Assembly: GCA_937959065.1 (NCBI GenBank)
Contig: CALGOI010000379.1
Span: 2,556 to 66,555 of the forward strand
Length of the DNA stretch: 64,000 nt
Reading direction: 5' to 3'
Source of the DNA: an uncultured Ignavibacteriota bacterium
GTDB taxonomy: Bacteria; Bacteroidota; Ignavibacteria; Tepidaquicellales; Tepidaquicellaceae
Below the pieces are notes generated by a model, which was not told where the DNA came from, ran no database searches, and saw nothing but the letters and a program-made list of their open reading frames with translations. Made by a program: the position numbers and the translations under genes. Of the stretch, positions 11,261 through 29,493 are shown piece after piece; position 1 is the stretch's first letter, and each line of letters begins with the position of its first letter.

Positions 11261-11343
11261 CGGTTTTGATAAAATGCAGGCGGGATAATGAGCCAAAAAG
11301 CGGCAAATAAGACCATAGCACCCGCTTCATTTTATCTTGTGTT
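11259..11343 (+). repeat. AAC...GTT-closed imperfect hairpin (site A0) overlapping the groEL stop
   Basis: TAAC spans the stop codon. Pairings are GATAAAATG (11268-11276) with CATTTTATC (11328-11336), GCGGG (11280-11284) with CCCGC (11321-11325), and AAC (11259-11261) with GTT (11341-11343). The arms are homologous to site A2. Confidence 0.6.
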
Positions 11344-11357
11344 ATGGCGCGTTTTTT

Positions 11358-11669
11358 ATGGATTACATAGACAATATTGTCCTAAAATTAAAAAGACAGT
11401 ACTCGAAAGACGAATTAGTCTCCTACCTCGCAAAAAAGCAAAGCGAATTGGAAACGGAAGTTGGGATGTTAAAATCTGAAAGAGACGAGTATCAGTATAA
11501 ATATGAGAAGCTCTTAAAGGCTGATAATGCTGTAAAATCAAGAGCTGGTCAATTGAAGCTGTACCAAAATATGAAAGCAGAAATCAAAGATTTGCGGGAA
11601 AAGTGCAGAAAACTTGAATTAGACAACTCCAAGCTATTACAGAAGGTGGTTCGCTTAAATGCGCCATAA
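11358..11669 (+). CDS. Coiled-coil hypothetical protein
   Basis: 103 aa from the ATG at 11358 (the ORF track starts at an upstream TTG). Heptad-like charged sequence. Confidence 0.45.
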   Translation: MDYIDNIVLKLKRQYSKDELVSYLAKKQSELETEVGMLKSERDEYQYKYEKLLKADNAVKSRAGQLKLYQNMKAEIKDLREKCRKLELDNSKLLQKVVRLNAP

Positions 11670-11721
11670 CGGATGGGTACATGAAGCGTATGAGGTACGA
11701 ATATGATTTATGTACCGTGTT
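11668..11721 (+). repeat. AAC...GTT-closed hairpin (site A1) overlapping a stop codon
   Basis: TAAC is at the stop. GGTACAT (11676-11682) pairs with ATGTACC (11710-11716), and AAC pairs with GTT (11719-11721). It overlaps an alternative 8-bp palindrome, GTACCGTG/CACGGTAC (11712-11738). Confidence 0.45.
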
Positions 11722-11760
11722 ATACATTGGCACGGTACGAAACAGATAAAACTTTATTAA

Positions 11761-12166
11761 ATGAACGAAAGTAGCAATAACAGTTTTTTGTGGGATGGCA
11801 AAAATGACCCGATAGGGGCAACAGTACTAAGCTTGTTTGATGGCATAAGTTGCGGACAACAAGCATTAAAAGAACTTGGAATACCTGTAAAAGAATACTA
11901 TGCAAGTGAGATTGACAAGTATGCAATTAAGGTAACGCAAGAGAACCACCCTAATACAATACAGCTCGGAAGCATCACAGAACTTGAAACAACTAAACTT
12001 CCTAAAATTGATTTGCTTATAGGCGGTAGCCCCTGCCAAAGTTTTAGTGTTGCTGGGGATGGAAGTGGTTTTAATGGTAAAAGTGGTTTGTTTTGGGAAT
12101 ATGTGAGAATATTAAAAGAAACAAAGCCTAAATACTTCTTGCTTGAAAACGTTAAAATGAAAAAGG
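11761..12166 (+). pseudogene. DNA (cytosine-5)-methyltransferase, N-terminal fragment (interrupted by an IS)
   Basis: Motif I (LFDGISCG), motif IV (GGSPCQSFSVAG) and motif VI (LLENVKMKK) are present. The reading frame then runs into IS sequence and stops at 12243. Confidence 0.85.
12159..12166. repeat. Target-site duplication, left copy (GAAAAAGG)
   Basis: An identical 8-mer abuts the other end of the insertion at 15430-15437. Confidence 0.75.
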
Positions 12167-12192
12167 GGCAATCATATAGGTGTTGGGACAGG
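12167..12192. repeat. Left terminal inverted repeat of the IS
   Basis: GGCAATCATATAGGTGTTGGGACAGG aligned against the reverse complement of 15404-15429 (GGTGATTATATATCATTTGGGACACG). Confidence 0.6.
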
Positions 12193-12235
12193 ATTTTACG
12201 CCTGATTTACACACACATCAGCAGAAACGACAAGT

Positions 12236-12367
12236 TCACTTAGGCTTGTCGTCCTTCTTTTTAGCTGAATCTTCATCAGCGTCTTTCAAGGAAGCCTTTA
12301 ACACATCAGAGAACGATGCGTTAACCTTTACTTCTTCTTCCTGATCGGACTTTTTCTCTTTAGACAT
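12236..12367 (-). CDS. Small acidic/lysine-rich ORF (43 aa), speculative
   Basis: MSKEKKSDQEEEVKVNASFSDVLKASLKDADEDSAKKKDDKPK. It is below the ORF-track cutoff and has no recognised domain. Confidence 0.2.
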   Translation of the reverse strand: MSKEKKSDQEEEVKVNASFSDVLKASLKDADEDSAKKKDDKPK

Positions 12368-12433
12368 ATTGCTAAGATACAAAATTGAAAATCGTAGTTT
12401 TACGTTAGTACATACAAACTTGCGTCAGCTTTC

Positions 12434-12554
12434 TTCGCTCTGAAATCTGGTAAATTTCAACTGACACGAAAAGCAAGCTGTGGCACCTCGTCATTACGGG
12501 CGTGGGGCTGCGCTTATTACTTCGTGTCAGGGCTTACCAGAGCCTCAGAGCGAG
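12434..12554. other. Long (~120 nt) three-segment imperfect hairpin inside the IS
   Basis: Pairings are CGCTCTGA (12436-12443) with TCAGAGCG (12545-12552), CTGGTAA (12447-12453) with TTACCAG (12534-12540), and CTGACACGAA (12461-12470) with TTCGTGTCAG (12521-12530). It lies between the divergent small ORF and the lipoprotein gene. Confidence 0.5.
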
Positions 12555-12629
12555 TAGAAGTTGTTGGCTCTGCGCTCGTCCGTTTATAAACCCACCATTA
12601 GGAGCCGGTGGTGCACAATAATCAAGCGT

Positions 12630-13349
12630 ATGAAAAAGTGTAAATTACTTGCTTGGGCAATAACTGGCGTTGTTTTCACTTCTTGCTCAGTCGGAAGCCA
12701 TGTAAGCAATGGGTCTCTTATTCAAAAGAGGAAGTACAACACCGGGTTCGCATCATTCAAATCACACACAGATCGTTCCGGTGAACTTAATCAAACCGCA
12801 TCCATATCGGATGACTATTTTATTGATGCTGTTAGCGATGACAACTATGAGGTTGAGGTTCATGAGGTCATAGAATCTCCTTATTCAACTTACGTGGTGC
12901 CGGAGCAGAATCAGGAAGTTTCTCCTGAGCAGTCTTTCGAATTGCCCATTGCTTCAAAAACGGAAGACGGCATTACAACTACCCTGATTCCACAGGAAAG
13001 ACTAATGGCAAAGGAAGATGGTGGCGGCTCAGGAGCAATGCGAACTATTGGGTGGGTGTTAATCGGTCTTGGATTATTGATACTGCTCTTTCTAAGCATA
13101 CTAATTGGAGCGCTACTTGCTTTGCTTGGTCTTATTTTCGTGTTGGCCGGAGGCGTTGGTGGTAATCAAAAGAAAGAAGATACTGGTGTTTTGCAAGAAG
13201 TGGTGTATTTGAAGAACGGCAGTATTATTCGTGGCACCATCATGGAGCAGGTTCCGGGAGTTTCTCTAAAAATTCAAACGGCAGACGGCAGTGTGTTCGT
13301 GTATAGCATGGATGAGGTTGAGAAGATAACCAAGGAGCCAAAGAAATGA
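12630..13349 (+). CDS. Putative lipoprotein/membrane protein (IS passenger)
   Basis: Taking the ATG at 12630 gives MKKCKLLAWAITGVVFTSCS, a lipobox-like signal. There is a long hydrophobic stretch (IGWVLIGLGLLILLFLSILIGALLALLGLIFVLAGG) and a C-terminal LKNGSIIRGTI...DGSVFVYSMDEVEKI module. Confidence 0.55.
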   Translation: MKKCKLLAWAITGVVFTSCSVGSHVSNGSLIQKRKYNTGFASFKSHTDRSGELNQTASISDDYFIDAVSDDNYEVEVHEVIESPYSTYVVPEQNQEVSPEQSFELPIASKTEDGITTTLIPQERLMAKEDGGGSGAMRTIGWVLIGLGLLILLFLSILIGALLALLGLIFVLAGGVGGNQKKEDTGVLQEVVYLKNGSIIRGTIMEQVPGVSLKIQTADGSVFVYSMDEVEKITKEPKK

Positions 13350-13621
13350 TTTTAACCCTAAACTTTAATAAAAGCATCAGGACATTACAGTCAATCATGA
13401 CCATACCTCATGACTTTTTGAAAATTTCTTGATGTTCTTCTTGATGCTATCAAGAAGTTTCATAACTTTACCGCAAAGAAAACGCCCTCACAAGTTTTGA
13501 CGGACTCAACGAGGGCGGATTCTTTCAGAAGCCTTGAGTGGTAAACCCCTTCCGTTGTAAGGAAGATCGGGTCAATACCACAAAGGGCCTTCTGTTGGCT
13601 AAGTTAACAAAAAGCAACAAC

Positions 13622-14074
13622 ATGGAACAGTCAGTAAAGGTTATTAAACAAGAAATCGAAATCCATAAGGCAGAGATAAGGCGGCACAAGTCGGAAATAG
13701 AAAAGCTTGGGGCGGCACTTCAAATATTGGTTGGGAATGGTGGCTCCGCCACTCACTCTGCTGATAATGAAAAAAAAAAACCCCTACACTTTAACACCCT
13801 TACATTCGCACAGTTGATGCAACACATTTTTTCTGATGATGTAACAAAAACAGGAAGGCAGTTATACGATGAGTTTTTGCTTATCACAGGAAAAACAAAT
13901 TATAAGTATCCAGCATTTTCTGCCCGGCTTTCTGAGAGGGCGGTCGTTAAGCTAATCAGCAGACATGAAGAAAGCGATCGGCCGATTCATCAAAGGTATA
14001 TCTATGGCCTTAAGGAATGGTTTAATAATGACGGATTGAAAGAGGAATACAGAAAAAGAATAAAATTTGAATAA
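13622..14074 (+). CDS. Hypothetical protein (IS passenger) containing an A11 tract
   Basis: 150 aa from the ATG at 13622, with a coiled-coil N-terminus. The ORF track begins at an upstream GTG. Confidence 0.5.
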   Translation: MEQSVKVIKQEIEIHKAEIRRHKSEIEKLGAALQILVGNGGSATHSADNEKKKPLHFNTLTFAQLMQHIFSDDVTKTGRQLYDEFLLITGKTNYKYPAFSARLSERAVVKLISRHEESDRPIHQRYIYGLKEWFNNDGLKEEYRKRIKFE

Positions 14075-14114
14075 TCGCCAATATGAGGCTTGTTCCTATT
14101 ATAATTAATAAAAG

Positions 14115-14131
14115 GGGCCGAAGCCCCTTTA
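14115..14131. terminator. Intrinsic terminator hairpin
   Basis: GGGGC-cgaa-GCCCC followed by TTT, 40 nt after the 13622-14074 stop. Confidence 0.6.
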
Positions 14132-14230
14132 AAATACCCTCTAACGGGGTTTCGCTGAAATAGTGCTGTCTCTTGTAAAGGCTGGCCTCATCTAACCAAA
14201 TCCGCAAGAGTAAACCCGTTAGAACCAAGA

Positions 14231-14253
14231 GGGGGAGTTCGCTCCCCCTTTTT
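14231..14253. terminator. Intrinsic terminator hairpin (bidirectional position)
   Basis: GGGGGAG-ttcg-CTCCCCC followed by TTTTT. It lies between the convergent passenger genes and the transposase stop. Confidence 0.65.
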
Positions 14254-14276
14254 CATGCACCAAAGATACGATAATC

Positions 14277-15191
14277 TTACTTCTGTATCAGATTCTCATA
14301 CTTCAGCCGTCTGCCATCGCTTTGAAAGATTGCTTCTGCAAAGCGTTCTTCCTGAGTATCCTCTTTAGCGTTGTATCGGTAGTTGAACTCGTCCAAGTAC
14401 CGAGATAGATGCTTGTCCGATACATGATGGTAGATTCCTATTATTCCCCGCTTCAATAATGAGAAGTAACCCTCAATAGTATTGGTATAGATCGAACCTC
14501 TCACGTATTCTTCTGCGGAATGATTCACTGAATGGTGTTGGTAGTAACCATTCAGGTTCTTATACATTCCGTTTTCATCAGTTATTACCACAGCCCCAGG
14601 CTTCACGTTCTTTAGCATTACCGGAACCACGTCCTTGGCTTTTCCGCTTTCCACAGCCTTAGATCGCACTTTACCCTCTCGCTGAACAAGGCCAACAACA
14701 GGTGTCTTACTATGCGCGCCTTGTTTGCCAATGCGCTTGCTCTTATGCTTATTGCTCTGTTTGCCGCCCACGTAAGTCTCGTCAATCTCAACTACTCCTT
14801 CCAATGATTGCGGAAGCTTCTCTTTTAGCATTTCCCTTACCCGGTGAAGAACAAACCATGCCGACTTCTGAGTAATACCGAGATCACGGGCTAACTGGCA
14901 GGAACTAATACCCTTCTTGTGGCTCGTAATTAGGTAGATGGCAATAAACCATTTACGAAGTGGTATTTTGGTGTTCTCGAATATGGTGCCCACTGTAACG
15001 CTGAACTTCTTGTGGCACTCCTTATTTGCGCATTTAAACCTCTTACCATTCTCAATCTTATAGACTTTCTTGCTCTTGCAGTATGGGCAGTTGGCCTTAC
15101 CGTTAACCCAACGAAGTTTAGCGAGATAGTCCCGGCAGGTTTGCTCATCCTTAAATGTCTCTGTTAGTTGTATAATGTTCTCGAACTCCAT
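14277..15191 (-). CDS. IS1595-family transposase (zinc-ribbon plus ISXO2-like DDE domain)
   Basis: 304 aa. The N-terminal zinc ribbon is CPYCKSKKVYKIENGKRFKCANKECHKKF, followed by an HTH (ISSCQLARDLGITQKSAWFVLHR) and DDE-region motifs VEIDETYVGG, VVITDENGMY and NTIEGYFSLLKR. Confidence 0.9.
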   Translation of the reverse strand: MEFENIIQLTETFKDEQTCRDYLAKLRWVNGKANCPYCKSKKVYKIENGKRFKCANKECHKKFSVTVGTIFENTKIPLRKWFIAIYLITSHKKGISSCQLARDLGITQKSAWFVLHRVREMLKEKLPQSLEGVVEIDETYVGGKQSNKHKSKRIGKQGAHSKTPVVGLVQREGKVRSKAVESGKAKDVVPVMLKNVKPGAVVITDENGMYKNLNGYYQHHSVNHSAEEYVRGSIYTNTIEGYFSLLKRGIIGIYHHVSDKHLSRYLDEFNYRYNAKEDTQEERFAEAIFQSDGRRLKYENLIQK

Positions 15192-15196
15192 TGTCT

Positions 15197-15331
15197 TTAG
15201 TTGTTGTCGGCTATCTTCTTTAATTGTATTCGGATATAATTACTAAGGCTCCGTTCGTCAGCATTGGCCAGCTTTTGCAACTTATCCTTTAGCTCCTTAC
15301 TGACTCTTATTACTATCGTTTCTTCTTTCAT
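15197..15331 (-). CDS. Ribbon-helix-helix (CopG/Arc-like) small protein upstream of the transposase
   Basis: 44 aa: MKEETIVIRVSKELKDKLQKLANADERSLSNYIRIQLKKIADNN. It shows the beta-strand/helix/helix pattern typical of RHH proteins. Its stop is 5 nt before the transposase ATG. It is not in the ORF track because it is under 60 aa. Confidence 0.5.
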   Translation of the reverse strand: MKEETIVIRVSKELKDKLQKLANADERSLSNYIRIQLKKIADNN

Positions 15332-15403
15332 GGTCACTTGTTATACATTGTATAACGATGTAATACATAAAAGGTTGCCTTAATTGTTGGGTTTTTCACG
15401 GGG

Positions 15404-15429
15404 CGTGTCCCAAATGATATATAATCACC
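15404..15429. repeat. Right terminal inverted repeat of the IS
   Basis: See the left terminal inverted repeat; 18/26 matches by hand alignment. Confidence 0.6.
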
Positions 15430-15437
15430 GAAAAAGG
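15430..15437. repeat. Target-site duplication, right copy (GAAAAAGG)
   Basis: Identical to 12159-12166. Confidence 0.75.
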
Positions 15438-15994
15438 AGTGGGAACAAGTTATTACCGATGCTTTAGGGGTAGAACCTTTTGAAATACCGAGTAATTTGG
15501 TTAGTGCTCAAAATAGAGTAAGACTGTACTGGACTAACTTTCCGCTAACATTGCCGAAAGATAGGGGTATTAGTTTGGGTGATATTATTGAAAAGGATTT
15601 TGTTTTTACAAGCAAGGCGCAAATCATACTTAGTACGATGTATAAAGAGAATGCTAAGAGTATGTTTAAGCGAAATAAAAAAGGCTTACTTGCTTGCTCT
15701 AAACAATGCTCTGAATGCAAGTTTATAAAACCAAAAAGCAACACAGTAAGAACTGGAGGTTTGAAAAGCTACCAACGCCACGAATGGGATTCAGTTTGCA
15801 AATTACACCTTCGCAAATTAACACCTTTGGAATGTGAAAGATTACAGACCTTACCTGATAATTATACGGCTTGCATAAGCAATACGAGACGATACCAAAC
15901 AATAGGAAATGGTTGGACTGTAGAAGTTATTAAGCACATCTTTAATTGCCTGATAAGGCAAGCGAGGGGAGAAAAAACTGTTATTGCGGAATAA
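15438..15994 (+). pseudogene. DNA (cytosine-5)-methyltransferase, C-terminal fragment
   Basis: The frame continues EWEQVITDALGVEP...SAQNRVRLYW (motif VIII)...LTPLECERLQTLPDNYT...TIGNGWTVEVI (motif X). There is no in-frame ATG at its 5' end. Confidence 0.85.
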
Positions 15995-16038
15995 CCGCAG
16001 TAACTTTGATTAAATGCACAGGTGTAGTGCTTGTGTAT

Positions 16039-16126
16039 AACGGTTTGGCTAAAATGTAGTAGCCGACCAACGAGAATTTGAATTATTAACCTGATGCTGC
16101 AAAGGCTATTCATTTTAGCTTTTGTT
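16039..16126 (+). repeat. AAC...GTT-closed imperfect hairpin (site A2)
   Basis: AAC-GGTTTG-GCTAAAATG (16048-16056) pairs with CATTTTAGC (16111-16119)-TTTT-GTT. The arms are homologous to site A0, with a compensatory change (A0 has GAT/ATC, A2 has GCT/AGC). Confidence 0.6.
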
Positions 16127-16150
16127 GTAGCATCGTAAAGCGAACGGATT

Positions 16151-16426
16151 ATGAACGAAAATGAAAGGATTGGAACATATTGTGAAAAATGTGGAGGGCC
16201 ATTTTGTATTTGCGAAGAAACCGAAGAAATAAAAAGGCAGGCATTAATAGAAATGAAAGATGATTTTAAAAGACAAGCAAATATTTGGAGGGGCAAAGCG
16301 GAAGAAGTGAAAGAATCAAGCAGACATAGATACTACCAGGGCAAAGCAATGGCTTATAAATACACCTACAATGCTTGCATGGAATTATTGTACGGAAAAG
16401 ATTGGAGAAAAACGCAGGAGGGGTAG
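16151..16426 (+). CDS. Hypothetical protein (CxxC...CxC)
   Basis: 91-aa ORF. Its stop lies 16 nt before the inverted-repeat site. Confidence 0.5.
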   Translation: MNENERIGTYCEKCGGPFCICEETEEIKRQALIEMKDDFKRQANIWRGKAEEVKESSRHRYYQGKAMAYKYTYNACMELLYGKDWRKTQEG

Positions 16427-16442
16427 TGAGCGTATGTGCTAC

Positions 16443-16505
16443 AACGATTGTATCAAAACACCCACACTGAAAATCAGAAAGTTATGAATGAATACACAAA
16501 TCAAT
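16443..16505 (+). repeat. Inverted repeat, left copy (IR-L); contains the recombinase start codon
   Basis: 16443-16488 is identical (46/46) to the reverse complement of 22929-22974. The extended alignment gives 60/63. It begins AACGATTG and contains GTTATGAA, with the ATG at 16484. Confidence 0.9.
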
Positions 16506-17368
16506 TCAGGCGATTTCTTTTGGGTAAAAGGTTGGCGCAATCGACAATGAACAGTTACCTAAGCCACTTAGATCACTACTTGCGTTGGTGTTATTCAGAG
16601 GGTGTGCCACCGGAAGATATGCCAACAGAGGCGTTGCTGGAATGGATGAGCCGACCCGGCTCACCAAGCACGGTAAGCCAACGAAGAACAACACTCGTTC
16701 ACTTGTATGAATCGGTGCTTGGCCAAGGCTTTAAGACTCTGCCGTTGCCCTACCCGAAAAAGAATGTTAGATTGCCCCACCACTTAACACCTCAACAGGT
16801 GGCGCGAATCATTCAGTCAGTAACAAACACCAAGCAACGCCTGGTCTTGCAAATAATGTACGCTCTTGCGCTCCGGGTAGAGGAAGCGGTAAGAATAAAG
16901 AGGGAGGATATTTACGAAAACTACGACACCGAAACGGGAGAGATGTACTATGAACTTAGGGTTGTTGGGAAAGGAAACAAGGAAAGGCGTATTCCAATTC
17001 CTGACCAAACGGTTGCAGCCATGTTTTCGCACATCAAATCCAAGCACACAGAAAGCGGCTATTTGTTCAAAGGTCAGTTCAAAGGACATTACAGTTACGG
17101 AAGCATCCGAAATGTATTCAACCGGGCGAAGGAGAAAGCGGAAGTAACTACGCCCGGAAGCACTCACCTACTCCGAAAGAGCAGAATAACCCACCTTGTA
17201 AATGCCCAATTGAACGACAGGACTATTATGCTAATGGTAGGCTGGAAGAACCAAAAGACCATAGAACACTACCACCGTGCTAACACCTCATCAATGAGAA
17301 AAGCAGTATCAATGGTTGACGAATCACTATTGCTAATTGAGAAGACACACCATAAACTTATAGCATGA
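16484..17368 (+). CDS. Tyrosine site-specific recombinase, Xer-like (short, no obvious arm-binding domain)
   Basis: 294 aa from the ATG at 16484. It has an N-terminal SAM-like core-binding region (STMNSYLSHLDHYLRWC) and the catalytic pattern R (LALRVEEAVRIKRED), K (GKGNKERRIPI), HxxR (HLLRKSRITHL) and H/Y (TIEHYHR). Confidence 0.85.
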   Translation: MNEYTNQFRRFLLGKRLAQSTMNSYLSHLDHYLRWCYSEGVPPEDMPTEALLEWMSRPGSPSTVSQRRTTLVHLYESVLGQGFKTLPLPYPKKNVRLPHHLTPQQVARIIQSVTNTKQRLVLQIMYALALRVEEAVRIKREDIYENYDTETGEMYYELRVVGKGNKERRIPIPDQTVAAMFSHIKSKHTESGYLFKGQFKGHYSYGSIRNVFNRAKEKAEVTTPGSTHLLRKSRITHLVNAQLNDRTIMLMVGWKNQKTIEHYHRANTSSMRKAVSMVDESLLLIEKTHHKLIA

Positions 17369-19873: not shown

Positions 19874-19892
19874 ATTCGGCTAAAGATACGAA

Positions 19893-21677: not shown

Positions 21678-21720
21678 TGTTCTGCTTTGGTTATTGTTTC
21701 GGGATCAACCTCTTGGTATT

Positions 21721-21954: not shown

Positions 21955-22125
21955 GTTAGTCGTGTTGGTTAATAATCATTAAGTTGATTTCGTTTATTCG
22001 TGCCTCAATATTCTTTTCGATCACAGCGCACCTCATTAGCTGCCCGGGCCGAACATCTTTTTTAATGCCCCGAACACGCTCCAGGCGCTTTGTAAGGCAC
22101 TCTTTCCTATGGATGAGGTATTCGC

Positions 22126-22302
22126 TCACTCCTTGCCCCGTATATAGCCCTTATCTTCTCCTGTATCACGGGCAGCTATCATCTTTTCACGTAGCCTGAT
22201 CTCCTTGTCGAGCAGGCAGCAGGGCCCCACGCCCCGGAAACAATCCTCGGCATAGTGTTCTTTGCCACACCTCCTGCACTTTATCTTAACTTTATACGTC
22301 AT
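22126..22302 (-). CDS. Small Cys-rich hypothetical protein
   Basis: The start was moved to the internal ATG (MTYKVKIKCRRCGKEHYAEDC...) so that it does not overlap the upstream gene, which ends at 22316. Confidence 0.35.
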   Translation of the reverse strand: MTYKVKIKCRRCGKEHYAEDCFRGVGPCCLLDKEIRLREKMIAARDTGEDKGYIRGKE

Positions 22303-22315
22303 TTTTCTTACGTGT

Positions 22316-22696
22316 TCAACAACGATTTTCACTAAACGTACTATACACCACGGCCACCTCTTTTGAGAACGAAATAGCCCCAATTCCAAGCCGTGTGTTT
22401 CTTACGCTTTTAAGGGTGATGTCGGCACCATGCCTGCTCACCACAATGTATTGCTCAGTGCCCACACCACTAATCACTACATCATCGGCCTCAATGTGCC
22501 TTTCTTCCTGCTCTATCTTTCCATGAACAACAAGGTAAACGTTGGTGTCTGTGGATCCCCACAGCCTAAGCCACCAATTGCTTGATGGTTCCTGGTAATA
22601 GCACACTTCTACGGTGCCTATATTGATCTTGGCGGTGTTGCCTCTGGCCAGCGTGTGGCATTCTCCGGGAGTTAGGGGGTAGTCGTAGATGCTCAT
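22316..22696 (-). CDS. Hypothetical protein
   Basis: 126-aa ORF with a 4-nt overlap with the upstream ORF. Confidence 0.45.
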   Translation of the reverse strand: MSIYDYPLTPGECHTLARGNTAKINIGTVEVCYYQEPSSNWWLRLWGSTDTNVYLVVHGKIEQEERHIEADDVVISGVGTEQYIVVSRHGADITLKSVRNTRLGIGAISFSKEVAVVYSTFSENRC

Positions 22697-22887
22697 CGTT
22701 TTGTGGTTATTTTATTAGTAATAGCGAATCCCGCAGCAAACCCCCAGATGCCGAACAACACCGTGGTAAGTATATATCCGGCCACGGTATCGTGCTCTGA
22801 GTTAAAGAATGCCGAGGTTGTCCATGCCCACCCAGTAAGGATAAAGGGCAGGGATGTTATTAGGGTGATCTTGAGTTTTCTGGTCAT
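22693..22887 (-). CDS. Small membrane protein
   Basis: 64 aa with two hydrophobic segments. It is the first gene downstream of IR-R. Confidence 0.45.
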   Translation of the reverse strand: MTRKLKITLITSLPFILTGWAWTTSAFFNSEHDTVAGYILTTVLFGIWGFAAGFAITNKITTKR

Positions 22888-22911
22888 GTTTTAAGGCTTT
22901 AGGTGGTCATT

Positions 22912-22974
22912 ATTAATTTGTGTATTTGTTCATAACTTTCTGATTTTCAGTGTGGGTGTTTTGATACAATCGTT
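22912..22974 (-). repeat. Inverted repeat, right copy (IR-R) with a vestigial 6-codon ORF
   Basis: This is the reverse complement of IR-L, with a perfect core at 22929-22974. On the minus strand it reads ATG AAC AAA TAC ACA AAT TAA (MNKYTN-stop), against MNEYTNQF... for the recombinase. Confidence 0.9.
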
Positions 22975-22983
22975 ATGTGCAAG

Positions 22984-23310
22984 CTAATCTTCGTGCCAAG
23001 CCTTAAATTCCGTTAAAAAAGGTTCGCTTTCTGGTCTGTGTCCATCTGCATAGCTTATATGAGCGTATGTGGTTTCAAAACCATATTGATAAACAGTTTC
23101 GTAGCCAAAAAACTTACAAATCCTATCAGCTTGCTTTTCATAGTCTTTTCGTTTTATGGTTTTGTCATAAAACCCCACCTTTTTTAACTCGTCATAATCG
23201 AAATGTTCCAGCAAGAAATTTTTGAGTAGTTCTAATTTCTCGCCAGCACATAACAATGTATAACCGTCAGGCTTGGTTTCTGCATTTTTGGGAGTTTCTT
23301 GTGTATTCAT
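22984..23310 (-). CDS. Hypothetical protein (array B ORF 9)
   Basis: 108-aa ORF. Its stop TAG lies 9 nt before the AAC of IR-R. Confidence 0.5.
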   Translation of the reverse strand: MNTQETPKNAETKPDGYTLLCAGEKLELLKNFLLEHFDYDELKKVGFYDKTIKRKDYEKQADRICKFFGYETVYQYGFETTYAHISYADGHRPESEPFLTEFKAWHED

Positions 23311-23333
23311 AAGTCATTTGTATTTTGAAAGTT

Positions 23334-23406
23334 AACGTCTAATTCACGCCCGAACGGTTATACTCACCGTTACCATTAATAAAAAAGGGCGACCAATCTG
23401 TACGTT
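23334..23406 (-). repeat. AAC...GTT-closed nested hairpin
   Basis: On the minus strand TAAC spans the stop. The outer pairing is AACGT/ACGTT, with CGCCC/GGGCG inside it and an inner AACGGT/ACCGTT mini-hairpin (23353-23371). Confidence 0.45.
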
Positions 23407-24283
23407 AAAAAACTGCGCATCCAGTACCACATTCTTCTTCCATATCAAACAAATCATTTTCATAAATATATTCATCTGTTGCTCTTGTAAATGGTTGTTC
23501 AGCCATTTTTACTAAATCTTCAATAGTATTGTAACCTCTATAAAATGTTTGCACACCGTTGTTTTTTTTCATTAATTCGTTATAGCTTGGTTTAACTTCA
23601 ATTGGTATTGAGCCATAAGTTTTAATCATTCTATCCCACCAATCAGCTTTATCTGGTTCTTCTTTTAAAATAGTCATTAACTTTCTGTTAGACTTCGCAA
23701 AACACATATCGCAGTTTCCTTTATAAGCTGGAATACTTATTTGTATTGGTTGTTCTTTCCAGAATTTATTTCTATCTCGATTTGAAATACCTCTATCTAA
23801 TAATGGATAAAAAACATTATTGGTTTTATAATCTTTCCTTACACGATCCATTTCATCGGCACGCAAACCAACAGCTATAGAATAATTATTTGTGCTAAAT
23901 ATTGAATCTGCATATTTTCTTAATGGCTCTAATTTCATATCTCTATTACACCATTTATTTTCTTTGTTTGGTATTCCAAACTTTTTTATGCCTGTTTCAA
24001 ATATTTCGCCATTACGCTTTAAGTTTTCGTAAGAAACTATTTTAGGTGTTACACCTGTGCCTTTATCGTGAAATTCTGCTTCAATCCAAATTAAATTAAG
24101 ATTATAGTGTTTATCACATTCATTCATAAACTCTAAAGATTCTTCTCTTTCTTTAGACGTGTTAGCCATAACATTTATAATATTGTGATCTGGAAACCAT
24201 TTAGGAAGCATTATAGCCATCATAACACTACTATAACCAGCAGATACACTACAAAATATATTTTTATTATTCTCTAATTTCAT
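23405..24283 (-). CDS. PAPS-reductase/PP-loop ATP-pyrophosphatase family protein
   Basis: 292 aa. It has an N-terminal PP-loop-like FCSVSAGYSSVMMA and a C-terminal CGTGC cluster. The family call is based on overall pattern only. Confidence 0.55.
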   Translation of the reverse strand: MKLENNKNIFCSVSAGYSSVMMAIMLPKWFPDHNIINVMANTSKEREESLEFMNECDKHYNLNLIWIEAEFHDKGTGVTPKIVSYENLKRNGEIFETGIKKFGIPNKENKWCNRDMKLEPLRKYADSIFSTNNYSIAVGLRADEMDRVRKDYKTNNVFYPLLDRGISNRDRNKFWKEQPIQISIPAYKGNCDMCFAKSNRKLMTILKEEPDKADWWDRMIKTYGSIPIEVKPSYNELMKKNNGVQTFYRGYNTIEDLVKMAEQPFTRATDEYIYENDLFDMEEECGTGCAVF

Positions 24284-24333
24284 TTCGTATTATTTTGCTT
24301 CGTGCCTCAGCAACGCCCTTTTTAACTAATGGT

Positions 24334-24377
24334 AACACCACCTATACACCATTAAAACGGTGCATAGCCAAACCGTT
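24334..24377 (-). repeat. AAC...GTT-closed hairpin
   Basis: The minus strand reads AAC-GGTTTGG-CTATGCACC-loop-GGTGTATAG-GTGGT-GTT, a 9-bp stem with one G-T pair. Its first 13 nt are identical to site A2 (AACGGTTTGGCTA). Confidence 0.55.
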
Positions 24378-24379
24378 AG

Positions 24380-24721
24380 CTACAATACCGCTTTTTCGTC
24401 TATTTCATCAGAGTCACACACAGGGCAAGTGCAATCACCATAATCACCAGTATCAGCTATTTGTCCACCGCCATTTAACAGTTTTGAGCTTCCCCACCAA
24501 CCGCACTTGCCACATTCGGCAGTATAGTATCTATTTGCAATATCTTCGGGAGAAGCGGTACAATAGCTAACATTGGCTATACGCAAATTATTTACTAGCT
24601 TATCCAATGTATATTGCATATGTACTTTGCCCCAATCTACTTGACATTCCCCTACTTTTGTCATAGGTTCAATCAGTTGTTTAATCTCTTCTACTGTTTT
24701 AATATCTTCTTTTGTTATCAT
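24380..24721 (-). CDS. Hypothetical zinc-ribbon protein
   Basis: 113 aa with CGKCGWWG...CTCPVC. Confidence 0.5.
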   Translation of the reverse strand: MITKEDIKTVEEIKQLIEPMTKVGECQVDWGKVHMQYTLDKLVNNLRIANVSYCTASPEDIANRYYTAECGKCGWWGSSKLLNGGGQIADTGDYGDCTCPVCDSDEIDEKAVL

Positions 24722-24750
24722 AATTTTAGTTCTTTAAATCCGTAAATAAT

Positions 24751-24772
24751 CAACGCATAGCCTTGTCCGTTG
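24751..24772 (-). repeat. Mini hairpin CAACG-12 nt-CGTTG
   Basis: The loop contains GGCTATGC, as does the neighbouring site at 24334-24377. Confidence 0.35.
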
Positions 24773-24782
24773 TGGTGCATGG

Positions 24783-24998
24783 CTACTCTACCCACATCAA
24801 ACCAATTTCCCGTCTAAAATTAGATAGGTGGCTCATTGCATCAGAAAGCATTGATTCCATGAAGCTCTCGTGCCTATTTAAAATGTCGGCTAATTCTCGT
24901 TTGGTTTTAGCGTTTTTTATTTCATCTTCATGTATCAGGTCGCCACCGTAGTAATCACGATAAGCCAACATTTTCTTTTTCGTTTCTTCTAAAGTCAT
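24783..24998 (-). CDS. Hypothetical protein
   Basis: 71 aa from the ATG at 24998 (the ORF track begins at an upstream GTG at 25019). Confidence 0.45.
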   Translation of the reverse strand: MTLEETKKKMLAYRDYYGGDLIHEDEIKNAKTKRELADILNRHESFMESMLSDAMSHLSNFRREIGLMWVE

Positions 24999-25027
24999 AT
25001 TCGTTAATTTACCCGCCACGACACCAC

Positions 25028-25139
25028 AACAATAAATAAACGCAAGCTGGTCGGGCGTTGTAGCGGAGGTTAGTATTTAATTTAAAGCTCAGTCATTTAA
25101 TCAAAGTCAAGGCTCAGCCAGCGTTTATTAGGTTTCGTT
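25028..25139 (-). repeat. AAC...GTT-closed long imperfect hairpin
   Basis: AATAAACGC (25035-25043) pairs with GCGTTTATT (25121-25129), with 4-5 further pairs after a 2x2 internal loop. AAC/GTT pairs at the base. Confidence 0.5.
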
Positions 25140-25149
25140 ATATACAATG

Positions 25150-25428
25150 CTAATCTAATGCACTTTCAGGATATTCAGTCCTTGCATCAAACACCCAAAT
25201 CATAATACCTTTTGCCCAACATTTTGCTGTCAAATCATCCATATCTAAATCAGAAAATTTATGCGTATAACAAACGCTTGGGTAATCAGCAAAAGGTTTT
25301 ATTAGTTCCGATGGCAAATAGCTGTATTCAAACTCATCCATCTCTTTAATTACTTCTTTTACTTTTTCAATGTCTTTAGGGTCATTTACATAAATTGCCC
25401 CGTAACTTTTGTGTGATAATGTATTCAT
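25150..25428 (-). CDS. Hypothetical protein
   Basis: 92-aa ORF. Confidence 0.5.
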   Translation of the reverse strand: MNTLSHKSYGAIYVNDPKDIEKVKEVIKEMDEFEYSYLPSELIKPFADYPSVCYTHKFSDLDMDDLTAKCWAKGIMIWVFDARTEYPESALD

Positions 25429-25465
25429 TTTAATAAAGTTTTAGTTTGTAACCCGCACAGTATAT

Positions 25466-25521
25466 AACAATGTATAAAGCTAACCCTGCGGGTCGTTTCA
25501 CTTAGCTTTATACTAACCGTT
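25466..25521 (-). repeat. AAC...GTT-closed hairpin overlapping a stop codon
   Basis: It has a 12-bp perfect stem, GTATAAAGCTAA (25472-25483) with TTAGCTTTATAC (25502-25513), with AAC/GTT at the base. TAAC spans the stop. Confidence 0.6.
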
Positions 25522-26044
25522 AGCAAACATTTTCTGCCAACGCGCGGGAATACTCCACCAACTTTGGCGAATTAGGATCGCGGCCATTTCTCGGCATCAT
25601 AGCCAAAGGATGAAAAGGTGTTCCATTTGCATTTAACCCAAAGCATTTAGCACCTTCAAATCTTGGTTTCACTTGCTTAATCCTATCCTTTGCCTGTTTG
25701 AAATTTCCCCAGCAAAATATTACATCATCACAAATGGCCGCTACTTCGTCCAATTTCACATCATTTTCACCTAAAGGATCATCACAAGTTAAAAGCACAT
25801 CTGGCTTAGACGATATGATTGCAAATAAGTTCGTCATATAAAAACCGCCATATCCAAGCACGGTAAGCATCTGAATGAGGTAGCGGATAGTAGTATCATT
25901 CTTTTCGTGATTAGCGGTTGATGGGTTCAATCCAATACACATAGCCAGAGGTTTAGATTCATCCCAAATTCGCCAAAGTTTATATCGGTAGTTTCCACAA
26001 GGTGAAAATTCCGCTCCTGATAAGTCTTTTCCAAATAAGTCCAT
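25520..26044 (-). CDS. DUF1643-family protein
   Basis: CGNYRYKLWRIWDESKPLAMCIGLNPSTANHEKNDTTIRY matches the DUF1643 N-terminal signature. Confidence 0.75.
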   Translation of the reverse strand: MDLFGKDLSGAEFSPCGNYRYKLWRIWDESKPLAMCIGLNPSTANHEKNDTTIRYLIQMLTVLGYGGFYMTNLFAIISSKPDVLLTCDDPLGENDVKLDEVAAICDDVIFCWGNFKQAKDRIKQVKPRFEGAKCFGLNANGTPFHPLAMMPRNGRDPNSPKLVEYSRALAENVC

Positions 26045-26062
26045 CGCTCAAAACGATTTGCT

Positions 26063-26150
26063 AACACGGGCTCAAAAGCAATTGCCTATGAAAGTCCGTG
26101 CTAAATTTGAAGCAGTGTTTAAGGGCAACTGCTTTTAGCCCGATCCCGTT
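26063..26150 (-). repeat. AAC...GTT-closed long bulged hairpin overlapping a stop codon
   Basis: Pairings are CGGGCT/AGCCCG (6 bp), AAAAGCA/TGCTTTT (7 bp), TTGCC/GGCAA (5 bp) and AAC/GTT. There are single-base bulges, including one extra G on the minus strand. Confidence 0.6.
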
Positions 26151-26295
26151 ATAGGGCATTTAAAAAACCCATAAAGCAAACACCAGCAACAAAAGTGTTA
26201 AACATTGCCACTTTATATTTCTTCTTACTATACATCCAAGCTGCACACACTAAGTTAAGTGCAGTTAATAAAATTTGTATCACTATTGTTTCCAT
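26149..26295 (-). CDS. Small two-segment membrane peptide (48 aa), speculative
   Basis: METIVIQILLTALNLVCAAWMYSKKKYKVAMFNTFVAGVCFMGFLNAL. It is below the ORF-track cutoff. Confidence 0.3.
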   Translation of the reverse strand: METIVIQILLTALNLVCAAWMYSKKKYKVAMFNTFVAGVCFMGFLNAL

Positions 26296-26311
26296 AATAA
26301 AAACGCCCTAT

Positions 26312-26435
26312 AACAAAATGTATAGCAAATAGCCGTTATTGAGCTGGTAATCAAACTATTTGCGTGTTTATAAATATTATCTATAATTCATCATTTGTGG
26401 TTATCTATCGGCTACATTGCCATACATAAACCGTT
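26312..26435 (-). repeat. AAC...GTT-closed long imperfect hairpin
   Basis: On the minus strand, ACCCAAC-GGTTTATGTATGGCAAT pairs with ATTTGCTATACATTTT-GTT. This gives ATGTAT/ATACAT and GCAA/TTGC plus G-T pairs. The 7-mer ACCCAAC fits RYYYAAC. Confidence 0.45.
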
Positions 26436-26445
26436 GGGTGTAATG

Positions 26446-26775
26446 CTAAACCCCCGCAAGTTCATATCTACCATTATCACCGTGAGCAAGTAAGTAATAG
26501 TTTTCGAACCATTCGAGGCTACTTTCTAACGCTATATATGTTCTATCCCCACCGTGCCAAACTCGGTAATAGTGGTGTTCAAAATGAATCCAAATCTTAT
26601 CACGGTCTTTTATGTTCGGTTCTACCCAGTATTTGCCTTCTTGAATCCAACCCTTACCTTGTAGGTATTCAGGCGTGAGTTGGTTAAGACCGTGAACAAT
26701 TCTGTTAGCAATCAACTTAACTGCTAATTTGTAAATGCATTGTTTAGCACTGAGCCATTTAATTAAGTTTTTCAT
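26446..26775 (-). CDS. Hypothetical protein
   Basis: 109 aa from the ATG at 26775. Confidence 0.45.
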   Translation of the reverse strand: MKNLIKWLSAKQCIYKLAVKLIANRIVHGLNQLTPEYLQGKGWIQEGKYWVEPNIKDRDKIWIHFEHHYYRVWHGGDRTYIALESSLEWFENYYLLAHGDNGRYELAGV

Positions 26776-26872
26776 TTCAATTCGATTAAGCACTACGCCC
26801 AACAATTGCTATAAAACATAGGGCGTTCGTGCGGTTATTAAAGTGTAGGGTTCTTATCATGTTGTTGGTTTC

Positions 26873-26904
26873 AACGATATGTTCGGCTATCTATGCCCTG
26901 CGTT
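26873..26904 (-). repeat. Weak AACG...CGTT hairpin immediately after a stop codon
   Basis: The minus strand reads TGA-AACGCAGGGCATAGATAGCCGAACATATCGTT, with only a 4-bp base plus GGC/GCC. Confidence 0.25.
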
Positions 26905-27072
26905 TCATAGCATAGCCGTTGTGTGCCATTTATTTTTCTTTGCCAGCTTCATTGTGCCTGTTATCACCTTGTTTAAGGTGGTTGAGGGGCAGCCTATTTC
27001 CTTTTCGATGAAATTAACAGACAATCTATATCTGTTGCTTTTCAGCCATTCGGTTAGTTCTTGGTTATTCAT
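26905..27072 (-). CDS. Small HTH-like protein (array B ORF 1)
   Basis: 55 aa from the internal ATG. LSVNFIEKEIGCPSTTLNKVITG is XRE-like. Confidence 0.35.
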   Translation of the reverse strand: MNNQELTEWLKSNRYRLSVNFIEKEIGCPSTTLNKVITGTMKLAKKNKWHTTAML

Positions 27073-27441
27073 TTCTGCTTTTTGCCGCCAAAACCCCACT
27101 ACCCTCAATCCAGCCGCACCACACAACATAGTGCAAACGTGCGCTTCGCATGAACATACCACACTTTTTCTCCCTTGATAACTACAAGAGAGCACACCTA
27201 ATTCTTATCTATCACCTCGAATTAAGTCTGGCTGACTACGCTGCGTTCTCCCTTACTAACCTGAGTAAACTAATTCTCCTAAGAAGGAGCATCAAGGTCC
27301 GGGGAGGGAAGTGTTCACCCTCGTGTCCGTCTGTCGCTTACTCATTGGCGCTTCAACCTTTCCGGATTTTTTTGGGAGCCGGTGTGCCCCCTGGAAAAAC
27401 CCCTGATCCGAAAACCGTATGTCTGCTATCGGTGGGGGCAT

Positions 27442-27483
27442 AAAAAAGAACCCCCGAACAGGCTTGATAAGTTTCGGAGGTTC
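27442..27483 (-). terminator. Intrinsic terminator (minus strand)
   Basis: The minus strand reads GAACCTCCGAA-loop-TTCGGGGGTTC followed by TTTTTT. Confidence 0.7.
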
Positions 27484-27643
27484 TAATGGTTGGCGGGTTT
27501 CCCTGCCCACACTGGTATTTTGGTAAAGATACTGATTCAGAACTTCGTTATCAACTTACTTAGCCTGTGATAACTTGACAAATCTACAACTTTTGTTGCA
27601 ATGTCAAAGAACTAATACAAAAAGAACGATGAGGTTTCCCTCT

Positions 27644-27877
27644 TTATTGTGTTCGCACAACCTTAAATACGTTAGGCACTGAAGTCTTTTCCAGTTCAAT
27701 ACGCCCCTTGAAGTAGGCATCCTTGCTGACTCCTTCCGCAACATAGTCCGGCACATAGGTGGCAATATACAGATCAGGGCCGGACTTGAGTGTGTGAATA
27801 ACCTTCTGTGCAAATTCCGATACCGAATCGATTGTGTGGTCTTGCTTATTACCGTGTATCATTATTATTCTACTCAT
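27644..27877 (-). CDS. Hypothetical protein
   Basis: 77-aa ORF whose ATG overlaps the stop of the upstream small ORF. Confidence 0.45.
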   Translation of the reverse strand: MSRIIMIHGNKQDHTIDSVSEFAQKVIHTLKSGPDLYIATYVPDYVAEGVSKDAYFKGRIELEKTSVPNVFKVVRTQ

Positions 27878-29311: not shown

Positions 29312-29493
29312 ATTTCCCCCGAAGGGGATTACCCTGTCCATTTCCAAGTAATGAAATATAGAGCAAGAAGGGTGATAATGAGCTTTACTACAAACTTGCT
29401 CTGATGGCGGGCTTTATGTCTCTGGTTGAATCGTTATCAGATTACAAGAAACCATTTTTACACATTCAATACTTTCAAAGAACTATCGATCCG

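Follow-up and report, generated by a model that had tools for sequence, protein, structure and literature searches.

A phage-borne gene-cassette platform that is likely to work like an integron with different parts

Short same-strand ORFs separated by imperfect hairpins, ending at a site linked to a tyrosine recombinase gene, raise the question of whether a phage can carry a cassette array of its own, what its units are and how they move. The whole stretch of 64,000 nucleotides analysed here (the window) had been predicted, from sequence alone, to hold an integron-like array serviced by a Xer-like recombinase. This original prediction largely held; that the recombinase is the catalyst is an inference resting solely on its conserved linkage to the sites, and catalysis was not shown.

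Layout of the two arrays

Array B occupies positions 22912-27247 of the window on the minus strand and comprises nine single-ORF units; a second array, A, lies at 11262-16445 on the plus strand. The boundaries of the units were established. The 5′ part of a unit is a G followed by an imperfect hairpin closing with GTT, and the 3′ end is yAAC right behind the ORF. Read in ORF sense, a unit runs from G through an imperfect hairpin (20-124 nt), GTT with a 5-7-nt extension, 8-40 nt, the ORF and the complementary extension to yAAC. The array ORFs are directed toward the recombinase, each with its hairpin upstream. In 11 of 12 array genes, compared with 5 of 77 other greedy ORFs of the window, AACG began no more than 20 nt from the stop codon (Fisher p = 1.4e-9). 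A purine (A or G) followed GTT at each of the 11 window sites whose R-box is paired and at all 23 sites examined in other loci. The G+C content of the island was 0.32-0.38 versus ~0.45. A Bacteroidetes-type promoter-like motif, TTTG-N18-TAGATTTG (27579..27608, minus strand), was found by pattern scan ~330 nt upstream of array B and none was found within the array; its promoter function is only putative.

The nine predicted minus-strand ORFs were all present, the first being better read as a 55-aa ORF with ATG (27072-26905) than as a 96-aa GTG ORF. The predicted AAC-G behind the stops, AAC/GTT hairpins and purine after GTT also held (Fisher test, site tally and DNA folds). Several other claims failed. 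A unit consists of a hairpin and the ORF downstream of it rather than of an ORF with the hairpin behind it, and the geometry departs from the classical attC. Array B starts at AACG 27247, not at 27072. The site before ORF119, read as TGAAACG 26904 / GTTGAAA, is AACGG 26920 with GTT 26803 (GTTGGGCG); the PAPS/ORF108 boundary, read as TAACGT 23406, is AACGG 23371; and the GTT of ORF108, read as GTTAACT, lies at 23254 within the ORF (GTTATGTGC). The weaker sites predicted after the stops at 30042 and 31464 held in part, with the AACG motif present and the hairpin absent.

Pairing and folding of the cassette sites

The two ends of a unit were shown to pair with each other. In this R-box, the 5-7 nt preceding the terminal AAC are paired to the 5-7 nt that follow GTT in the hairpin of the same unit, not the neighbour's. 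Beyond AAC/GTT, a cassette's own ends were complementary over a mean of 4.7 contiguous nt, whereas non-cognate pairs reached 0.88 nt and pairs that are physically adjacent ~1 nt; no permutation reached the observed own-end value (0/100000). The sites show pairing covariation. Under a strict rule (R-box ≥9 bp, unit ≤1300 bp, AACG upstream of GTT), 10 matches were found in the window versus 1.0 in shuffles, and 26 versus 2.6 in eight other loci combined. Since the R-box pairs a unit's own two ends, the complete site exists only in the circularised cassette. DNA folds of the circular junction gave z = -3.1 to -5.5 for 8 of the 11 sites first tested. In 27 of 34 sites the sense strand was the stabler of the two (p = 9e-5), a bias that an RNA-level role of the hairpins could account for as well.

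All cassettes of array B are on the minus strand. B1 (26918..27244) carries a 55-aa HTH-like ORF (27072-26905) whose final four codons cross the crossover point into the next unit; its R-box is CACACAAC / GTTGTGTG, with GTT at 27127, and its circular form folds at -19.7 to -19.9 kcal/mol. B2 (26433..26917) combines a 120-nt hairpin (AACGG 26920 to GTT 26803, 17-bp stem) with a 109-aa ORF from ATG 26775 to 26446, an extent backed by a gene call in the variant contig L001; the R-box is ACACCCAAC / GTTGGGCGT (8/9). B3 (26148..26432) has a 124-nt hairpin and a 48-aa ORF (26295-26149; R-box CCCTATAAC / GTTATAGGG; fold z -3.8), B4 (25519..26147) an 88-nt hairpin and a DUF1643 ORF (26044-25520; TTTGCTAAC / GTTAGCAAA; z -5.5), B5 (25137..25518) a 56-nt hairpin and a 92-aa ORF (25428-25150; GTATATAAC / GTTATATAC; z -5.0) and B6 (24769..25136) a 112-nt hairpin and a 71/78-aa ORF (25019-24783; CACCACAAC / GTTGTGGTG; z -3.9). 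B7 (24375..24768) pairs a 113-aa ORF (24721-24380) with a short 20-nt site, AACGGACAAGGCTATGCGTT, which has no R-box partner and no significant fold (z -0.7). Boundary sites that are likewise short and without a partner occur at 6182, 7368 and 7637 of contig L011. B8 (23369..24374) carries a hairpin and a PAPS-reductase-like ORF (24283-23405); its R-box, TAATGGTAAC / GTTACCATTA, extends into a 23-nt inverted repeat (24336-24314 / 23391-23369), and with the corrected boundary its circular form folds at -13.6 kcal/mol. B9 (22972..23368; R-box GCACATAAC / GTTATGTGC) carries a 108-aa ORF (23310-22984) whose start is overlapped by the 120-nt hairpin (AACGG 23371 to GTT 23254); the circular form with the corrected boundary folds at -18.5 kcal/mol.

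The cassettes of array A are on the plus strand. A1 (11262..11670) starts at the TAACGG in which the GroEL stop is embedded and consists of an 85-nt hairpin and a 103-aa ORF (11358-11669; R-box GCGCCATAAC / GTTATGGCGC; fold z -3.5). A2 (11671..16041) has a 54-nt hairpin and a C5 cytosine methyltransferase gene (R-box TGTATAAC / GTTATACA; z -4.2) in two parts, 11761-12243 and 15497-15994, interrupted by a ~3.3 kb insertion encoding an IS1595-family transposase. A3 (16042..16445) has an 88-nt hairpin and a 91-aa ORF (16151-16426; R-box TGCTACAAC / GTTGTAGCA; z -3.5).

Gain, loss and replacement of units

Units were shown to be gained, lost and replaced at AAC|G, and the predicted turnover of single units in related genomes held exactly at the motif. 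Near-identical metagenome contigs from three samples of one study were compared as population variants. The 394-bp ORF113 unit (B7) is missing from L001 and L004 and kept in L003; L001 additionally lacks the 285-bp ORF48 unit (B3), and the junction there reads CACCCAACGG|GATCGGGC. The deletion junctions have only AACGG in common with the window sequence, their flanks being unrelated, and contigs L002 and L003 terminate exactly at these junctions. L002 also carries a two-ORF unit (G-hairpin...CACACAAC) inside the window ORF 30917-31378, inserted at GTAC|AT with AC alone in common; ordinary direct repeats, 13 nt and 5 nt long, border its further indels. Replacement was seen between L009 and L010, two near-identical members of the set of seven other phage contigs described below: their sequences are the same as far as ...TTTAACGGA|, hold wholly different cassettes beyond it, and coincide once more from |AACGATACAAT across the recombinase (99.8%). 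The exchange point is the stop-proximal AAC|G, not the predicted GTT, and the hairpin therefore moves with the downstream ORF. Coverage of the variant contigs was only 3-4x, with the ORF113 junction seen in two samples. Identity at the junctions amounts to just 5 nt, and to 2 nt at the secondary site, which leaves microhomology-mediated events formally possible.

The hairpins could instead have a regulatory or RNA function, as terminators, processing sites or promoter-stem-loop modules of the T4 PeSL kind; turnover would then come from recombination, homologous or illegitimate, among intergenic modules that resemble one another. In favor of this reading are leaders conserved across unrelated cassettes and phages, the better fold of the sense strand, as expected of RNA, and the direct repeats at the other L002 indels. 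Against it, the spacers lack terminator features, which the original prediction had left as a possibility: no T-tracts follow the hairpins, a scan gave 3 terminator-like matches versus 4.0 expected, none of them in spacers, and no Rfam family matched. The junctions share AACGG alone, the insertion at GTAC lies within coding sequence, and the R-box links unit ends 290-4400 nt apart, for which local RNA structure is no explanation. This alternative is considered unlikely. T4-type PeSL cassettes (promoter-early stem-loops; Arbiol et al. 2010) are reported to be small accessory genes bounded by stem-loops, located in the hyperplastic regions of virulent phages and shuffled as modules, reportedly by homologous recombination between conserved promoter/stem-loop modules without a dedicated recombinase. 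The present arrays resemble them in their small stem-loop-bounded accessory genes and modular shuffling, and differ in their 5-nt junctions, self-pairing unit ends and linked recombinase.

Non-autonomous IS200/IS605-type single-strand transposons, hairpin-guided and mobilised by an HUH/Y1 transposase encoded elsewhere, would fit the insertion 3′ of a 3-4-nt target (AAC or TAC), the subterminal hairpin at one end, and a unit 3′ end complementary to hairpin-adjacent sequence, which recalls guide-sequence recognition. However, a Y1/HUH transposase is absent from the window and the loci, the sole transposase is the IS1595 DDE enzyme within one cassette, and the units lie strictly head-to-tail beside a tyrosine recombinase and a conserved AACGA site, making this explanation very unlikely.

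The recombinase, its attI-like sites and known systems

The cassette platform adjoins a gene for a Xer-like tyrosine recombinase (16484..17368, plus strand, 294 aa). The IntI-specific insertion is missing: the enzyme scored 74.6 bits against the integron-integrase model (cutoff 265) and lacks the ~40-residue I2 region. The I2 helix is held necessary for single-strand attC recombination by IntI; if the substrate here is really folded, the chemistry must differ.

Each array terminates at a 63-nt site opening with AACGA, which takes in the 5′ end of the recombinase gene or a truncated copy of it. Array A ends at IR-L (16443..16505, plus strand; AACGATTGTATC...), 41 nt upstream of the recombinase ATG, and this arm spans the 5′ UTR and the first 7 codons. 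Array B ends at IR-R (22912..22974, minus strand), which also begins with AACGATTGTATC and contains a truncated recombinase start, MNKYTN*. As predicted, IR-R is an inverted copy of the recombinase-start site; the two arms are 95% complementary and begin exactly at AACG. The linkage is conserved. Seven other phage contigs have the same layout, with recombinases 25-39% identical; in the seven other homologue-encoding loci every array adjoins a non-IntI recombinase. The AACGA core precedes six homologous recombinase genes in these other loci, the adjacent cassette ending there each time, and lies 41-44 nt upstream of the ATG in every homologue 33-39% identical to the window enzyme.

Alternatively, the recombinase and its inverted repeat could form a DNA invertase (16443-22974) or a lysogeny integrase with its attP, the arrays lying nearby by chance. 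A 6.4-kb segment is indeed flanked by two inverted site copies, and both functions are common among tyrosine recombinases. Against this, contigs spanning either arm (L001, L012, L014) showed no inverted isoform, no prophage copies of the recombinase were found among 185,579 bacterial and archaeal species genomes, and the other loci have one site at which arrays still end. This reading is very improbable.

Under the cassette reading, the two ends of an excised circle would join into a complete three-part site: an R-box helix of 9-12 bp, an asymmetric internal loop with more nucleotides on its AACG side, and a further stem (9-20 bp) that carries a variable loop. The recombinase would swap strands at AA|C or AAC|G. 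Two cassette sites would yield excision or reshuffling; capture would result when a cassette site meets the attI-like site (AACGA-TGTAT), which is unstructured and directly precedes the recombinase gene, so that new cassettes would enter beside the recombinase and in its orientation. As the attI-like site is duplicated and inverted in this phage, two arrays converge on the 6.4-kb core. Circular intermediates are inferred, as is a substrate of folded single-stranded DNA, probably the ORF-sense strand, which was not shown; there is no experimental or read-level evidence of circles or recombinase activity.

Like bacterial integrons, the system has arrays of mostly single-ORF cassettes, yAAC...GTTr-closed imperfect hairpins with R-box, unpaired spacer, second stem and variable loop, an R-box complete only once the cassette ends are joined, an unstructured capture site beside the recombinase gene, secondary-site insertion, and a recombinase from the Xer-related branch of tyrosine recombinases. 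Unlike in bacterial integrons, the recombinase lacks I2 and falls below the integron-integrase cutoff, and the ORFs face attI and the recombinase, whereas integron ORFs face away. With crossover at the ORF-proximal AAC|G, each ORF has its site on the 5′ side; the crossover arm bears the longer spacer, the sole promoter-like motif is at the end far from attI, and the carriers are virulent-type phages, with no copies found in bacterial genomes. XerC and XerD of the host move pdif modules (Acinetobacter plasmids) and CTX-phi-type IMEX elements at 28-bp dif-like sites, CTX-phi integrating as a folded single-strand hairpin. There too, Xer-family enzymes move discrete gene modules, but the present enzyme is phage-encoded and its sites are long variable hairpins with covarying ends; no dif-like site was seen here.

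Qi et al. 2023 (PMC9892861) described CALINs from virulent phages, Polaribacter phage P12002L among them; just two sites, in 'divergent' orientations, were found in P12002L and treated as bacterial integron parts, and no phage recombinase was proposed. This isolated phage has the present site family, to which P12002L_attC1 and attC2 belong, homologous leaders, at least 8 sites obeying the same rules, and methyltransferase cargo as here, although no recombinase was detectable in it; related phages encode a dedicated one with its own attI-like site. The arrays might be CALINs, attC clusters without integrase acquired from bacteria, serviced if at all by host IntI and unrelated to the phage recombinase. 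HattCI and Infernal called the two P12002L sites attC, IntI1 recombined one of them with attI1 in E. coli (PMC9892861), and the R-box, spacer and stem architecture is attC-like. However, exchange occurs at the ORF-proximal AAC|G, and a G|TT exchange after the hairpin would give a different L001; every ORF runs antisense by the attC convention; of the unpaired spacers, the one on the crossover arm is the longer; the arrays adjoin the non-IntI recombinase in all seven other loci, with AACGA alongside in six; and the recombinase family was not found in the 185,579 genomes. The CALIN explanation is therefore judged unlikely.

No published description of such a phage platform was found in the literature searched, the sole earlier report being the two P12002L sites labelled attC. 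The cargo (C5 methyltransferase, PAPS-reductase-like protein, DUF1643 and HTH protein) is inferred to serve host takeover or anti-restriction. These phages thus likely carry a gene-cassette platform that is integron-like in its working and built from different parts.

The islands and their flanks

The window was likely, by its appearance, a tailed-phage genome, with large plus-strand structural ORFs at 34-62 kb and a GroEL gene; megablast of window 16-34 kb against isolated phages (INPHARED) returned no nucleotide match. The island at 23-27 kb had a G+C content of 0.32-0.38 versus ~0.45 and was filled by short minus-strand ORFs encoding a DUF1643 protein, a PAPS-reductase-like protein (phrog_424) and seven proteins without a family. 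Each unit, or cassette, is read here as a G and a hairpin ending in GTT, followed by an ORF and a terminal yAAC. AACG began no more than 20 nt from the stop codon in 11 of the 12 genes of this island (array B, 22912-27247, minus strand) and of the plus-strand island at 11.2-16.4 kb (array A), versus only 5 of 77 other ORFs of the window (Fisher p = 1.4e-9). A 63-nt inverted repeat (16443-16505 and 22912-22974) was 95% complementary, and AACG formed the start of each arm. The left arm comprised the 5' UTR and the first seven codons of a tyrosine recombinase gene (ATG at 16484, end at 17368; 294 aa), indicating that the two islands terminate at copies of one recombinase-proximal, attI-like site.

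In array A, the first TAACGG motif includes the stop codon of a full-length GroEL gene (9647-11260, 620 bits). No partner for an R-box, the pairing of a unit's own two ends, was found upstream of GroEL, which is thus likely a fixed left flank and apparently not a cassette. In cassette A2, the C5 cytosine methyltransferase gene was split (11761-12243 and 15497-15994) by a ~3.3 kb insertion at ~12160-15440, within which lay two passenger ORFs (12561-13349 and 13538-14074) and, on the minus strand, a transposase of the IS1595 family (14277-15191); the split arrangement was also present in contigs L012 and L013.

On the minus strand, a Bacteroidetes-type promoter motif (TTTG-N18-TAGATTTG, 27579-27608) was separated from the first cassette of array B by a 330-nt ORF-free leader, the structure of which (27245-27580) was not significant (z -1.4). 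A small stem-loop (TTGCTgaggcacgaAGCAA, 24290-24308, minus strand) between an R' box and a start codon was conserved with covariation in leaders of Polaribacter phage P12002L (L008 ~30860 and 38830; TGCCT...AGGCA) and may act in translation or processing within one family of leaders. A weak tRNA-like hit was obtained at 29206-29311 (minus strand) and 29232-29461 (Rfam 31.4 bits, ARAGORN none). In L002, a contig near-identical to the window, another 341-bp sequence (3338-3678) replaced this stretch with its 3' end GGTTCGAGTCC.GTCCTTGCCA kept, and the stretch looks as if it may be a variable tRNA-like locus.

Gain, loss and own-end pairing of units

Gain and loss of whole units became apparent from short variant contigs of three ENA assemblies, which were found by exact-protein look-up and matched the window at 99-100% identity. 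Contig L001 lacked two single-ORF units of 285 bp (48-aa ORF) and 394 bp (113-aa ORF); the deletion of the 394-bp unit was seen again in L004, from a different sample, and L003 kept that unit. The deletion junctions read CACCCAACGG|GATCGGGC and CACCACAACGG|TTTGGCTATG, and the parental sequences had only AACGG in common. In L002, a two-ORF unit of ~708 bp was located inside the window ORF 30917-31378, reading AAGTAC|GGTTTGGCTATGCG...GCACACAAC|ATGTACC; this unit is a secondary-site insertion, with only AC common at the junction. Two contigs started or ended precisely on deletion-junction motifs, as expected if one sample holds both forms. The variant contigs were of low coverage. In all three events, the hairpin after AAC traveled with the downstream ORF, which rules out exchange of the integron type at the GTT that follows this hairpin. 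The original prediction of single-unit gain and loss in related genomes therefore held, but the L001, L004 and L002 junctions placed the exchange at the AAC|G 5' of the hairpin, not at GTT.

Two alternative definitions of the unit were considered. Canonical exchange at G|TT was rejected, and so was a unit delimited by terminal inverted repeats (GTT...AAC), as the deleted units include the hairpin.

A larger exchange was found between two other phage loci, L009 and L010. They were identical as far as ...TTTAACGGA|; identity resumed at |AACGATACAAT and extended across the recombinase (99.8%). The interval held cassettes that had nothing in common, 1449 bp in L009 and 2687 bp in L010.

Two more indels in L002 (1363-1996; window ~30800 and 30856) lay away from AACG sites: a 13-nt direct repeat, GAGCGGCAGAAAA, bordered one of 474 bp, and TGACG bordered the other, of 92 bp. 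The region 29.4-31.6 kb was only 95-96% identical in L002 versus 99% elsewhere.

The 5-7 nt before the terminal AAC of a unit and the 5-7 nt that follow the GTT of its own starting hairpin were reverse complements of each other, as in CCCTATAAC / GTTATAGGG, TTTGCTAAC / GTTAGCAAA, GCGCCATAAC / GTTATGGCGC and TAATGGTAAC / GTTACCATTA. Mean contiguous complementarity was 4.7 nt for a cassette's own two ends versus 0.88 nt for non-cognate pairs and about 1 nt for physically adjacent pairs. The predicted covariation of the sites was thus borne out in the form of own-end pairing, the observed total being reached in 0 of 100000 permutations. The R-box is built from the two ends of one cassette, implying a circular intermediate; the circles themselves are inferred and none was observed. 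Under the own-end rule, the 23-nt inverted repeat around the PAPS-reductase gene became an extended R-box, and three boundaries were moved, to 27247, 26920 and 23371. Placements at TGAAACG 26904 and TAACGT 23406 were rejected in favor of 26920 and 23371, as indicated by scanning for hairpins and by the R-box rule. Some boundary sites were short and without an R-box partner, the polymorphic 113-aa ORF unit among them.

Sites were found by custom scanners, as variable loop lengths made MAFFT-based alignment unsuitable. When folded as DNA, end-joined sites formed an R-box of 9-12 bp, an internal loop and a 9-20-bp stem with a variable loop, and the internal loop was longer on the AACG side in the predicted folds (~1-6 nt versus 0-3 nt). 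Eight of the first 11 window sites had z = -3.1 to -5.5. Most of 34 sites from nine loci displayed attC-type architecture (imperfect hairpin, AAC/GTT R-box, unpaired spacer, L-stem and variable loop), and a purine followed GTT in every site. The ORF-sense strand was more stable than its complement in 27 of the 34 sites (mean -2.3 kcal/mol, p = 9e-5), a bias that could also fit an RNA-level role of the hairpins. A reading of the hairpins as terminators was not supported: the signature of a G+C-rich stem plus T-run gave 3 hits in 22500-27800 versus 4.0 expected, none of them in cassette spacers. At Rfam gathering and E-value thresholds, the spacers matched no family, and the hairpins received only chance miRNA-like hits.

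Weaker sites had also been proposed at 30042 and 31464; there only the motif held, with the hairpin absent and no significant R-box partner. The sequence AAAACGATGGTATGTAGCGG after the stop of ORF 30042-30707 (30028-30044, minus strand) closely resembled the attI-like core AACGATGGTATAGAAG of phage locus L017, and it may be a relic capture site.

The recombinase and related phage loci

The recombinase was a simple Xer-like protein, of Xer type only in its overall fold (PF00589 plus a SAM-like N-domain) and its best PDB matches. It scored 74.6 bits with the integron-integrase model TIGR02249 (cutoff 265) and 57 with PRK15417 (cutoff 435), and does not qualify for membership of the XerA, XerD or XerC equivalogs (109, 102 and 85 versus cutoffs of 220, 330 and 335). 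The best PDB matches were XerA and XerD; the AlphaFold model was mediocre (pLDDT 69), and little weight was therefore put on Foldseek ranks. In the alignment with VchIntIA (2a3v), 74 chain residues faced 32 query residues between query residues 173 and 206, such that ~42 residues were skipped at the IntI-specific I2 region, and only 21 residues separated helices 174-183 and 205-218 in the model. A Xer-like, non-IntI recombinase, as originally predicted, was thus upheld by the subthreshold integron-integrase score and the missing I2. No 28-bp dif-type site was seen, the sites being judged by direct reading only.

Homologues of the recombinase were rare and 25-39% identical. A search of 185,579 bacterial and archaeal genomes yielded only a single 26% match, and this near absence argues against a role in lysogeny. 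Among isolated phages, tblastn recovered only the integrase of Polaribacter phage Leef_1 (28% identical), and an initial scan of viral contigs with the single recombinase protein gave nothing.

Seven other loci encoded a homologue, and each of the seven had runs of units in one orientation that followed the own-end rule. In six of them (33-39% homologue), the ATG was preceded at 41-44 nt by an AACGA-(N)TGTAT-type core, on which the adjoining cassette ended. Together with P12002L, which is without a homologue, these loci contained 26 own-end-rule units versus 2.6 expected from shuffles, with 6-8 units each in L011 and L018. P12002L, an isolated phage, shared the same sites and homologous leaders with the window, and no tyrosine recombinase was annotated or detected in it. 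On its minus strand (L008 29248-41779), at least eight sites of the family flanked methyltransferase, Mom-like and HNH genes, and some followed the own-end rule.

In L005 (6578-7737), a second tyrosine recombinase of 329 aa was directly followed by a hairpin site. The reconstructed 72-nt circular-form site including the R-box (TACTGGTAAC / GTTACCAGTA) was identical in L005 and L010 (70-186), and ~118 nt of leader around it were 91% identical. The recombinases of these two loci differ, indicating that one cassette leader occurs in two phage lineages.

Relation to known systems and meaning

By the prevailing view, no cassette platform other than integrons uses folded hairpin sites, and this ability is tied to the IntI-specific I2 helix. 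The phage sites matched the attC architecture of integrons, the R-box from one cassette's ends and the presence of an attI-like site beside the recombinase gene, whereas the integrase models and the I2 insertion were not met. Integron crossover at the G|TT of R' and attC 3' of the ORF were likewise not met, as exchange in the phage occurs at the AAC|G preceding the hairpin. Nor was the integron Pc at attI, with cassettes pointing away: the phage ORFs point toward the attI-like site, and the sole Bacteroidetes-type promoter motif (27608-27579) is at the far end of the array. With no IntI, no attI-proximal promoter, and crossover position and ORF orientation unmet, the phage platform is outside the integron family as defined. 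Transposons of the IS200/IS605 type have subterminal hairpins at both ends, whereas each phage unit has one; a Y1/HUH TnpA was not found in the window or loci by Pfam scans or precomputed Pfam calls.

Two P12002L sites have been called attC sites of a 'CALIN' by Qi et al. 2023 (PMC9892861), who demonstrated IntI1-mediated recombination of one of the two with attI1 in E. coli, indicating that sites of this family can serve as hairpin recombination substrates. The array extent, unit structure and phage recombinase were not recognized there, and searches of full-text literature turned up no account of a Xer-like cassette system in phages.

The best explanation is likely an integron-like capture platform run by a Xer-like recombinase without I2, in which the site would form the 5' part of each cassette and the cassettes would be oriented toward the recombinase. 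That the recombinase is the catalyst, that folded single-stranded DNA is the substrate and that circular intermediates exist are inferred only, as is a role of the cargo in anti-restriction or host takeover. The occurrence of sites without a recombinase in P12002L is a weak point of this platform model.

A bolder reading, toward which we lean by a narrow margin as a joint claim, is an integron-independent, phage-specific gene-capture lineage. In this lineage, a Xer-like recombinase without the I2 helix would recombine folded single-stranded hairpins 5' of ORFs, and virulent Bacteroidota phages of different habitats would share a circulating pool of cassettes, including genes for DNA modification and, probably, for anti-defence; the phage 'CALINs' would be that system and not bacterial integron debris. 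If so, the reading of published phage 'CALINs' would change, and the small recombinase and short sites would be a potential tool. It would be a second hairpin-cassette platform, with another recombinase lineage, mirrored site geometry and a viral host. Hairpin-cassette recombination would then have evolved more than once or be older than IntI, and the hyperplastic accessory-gene regions of virulent phages would have a concrete mechanism.
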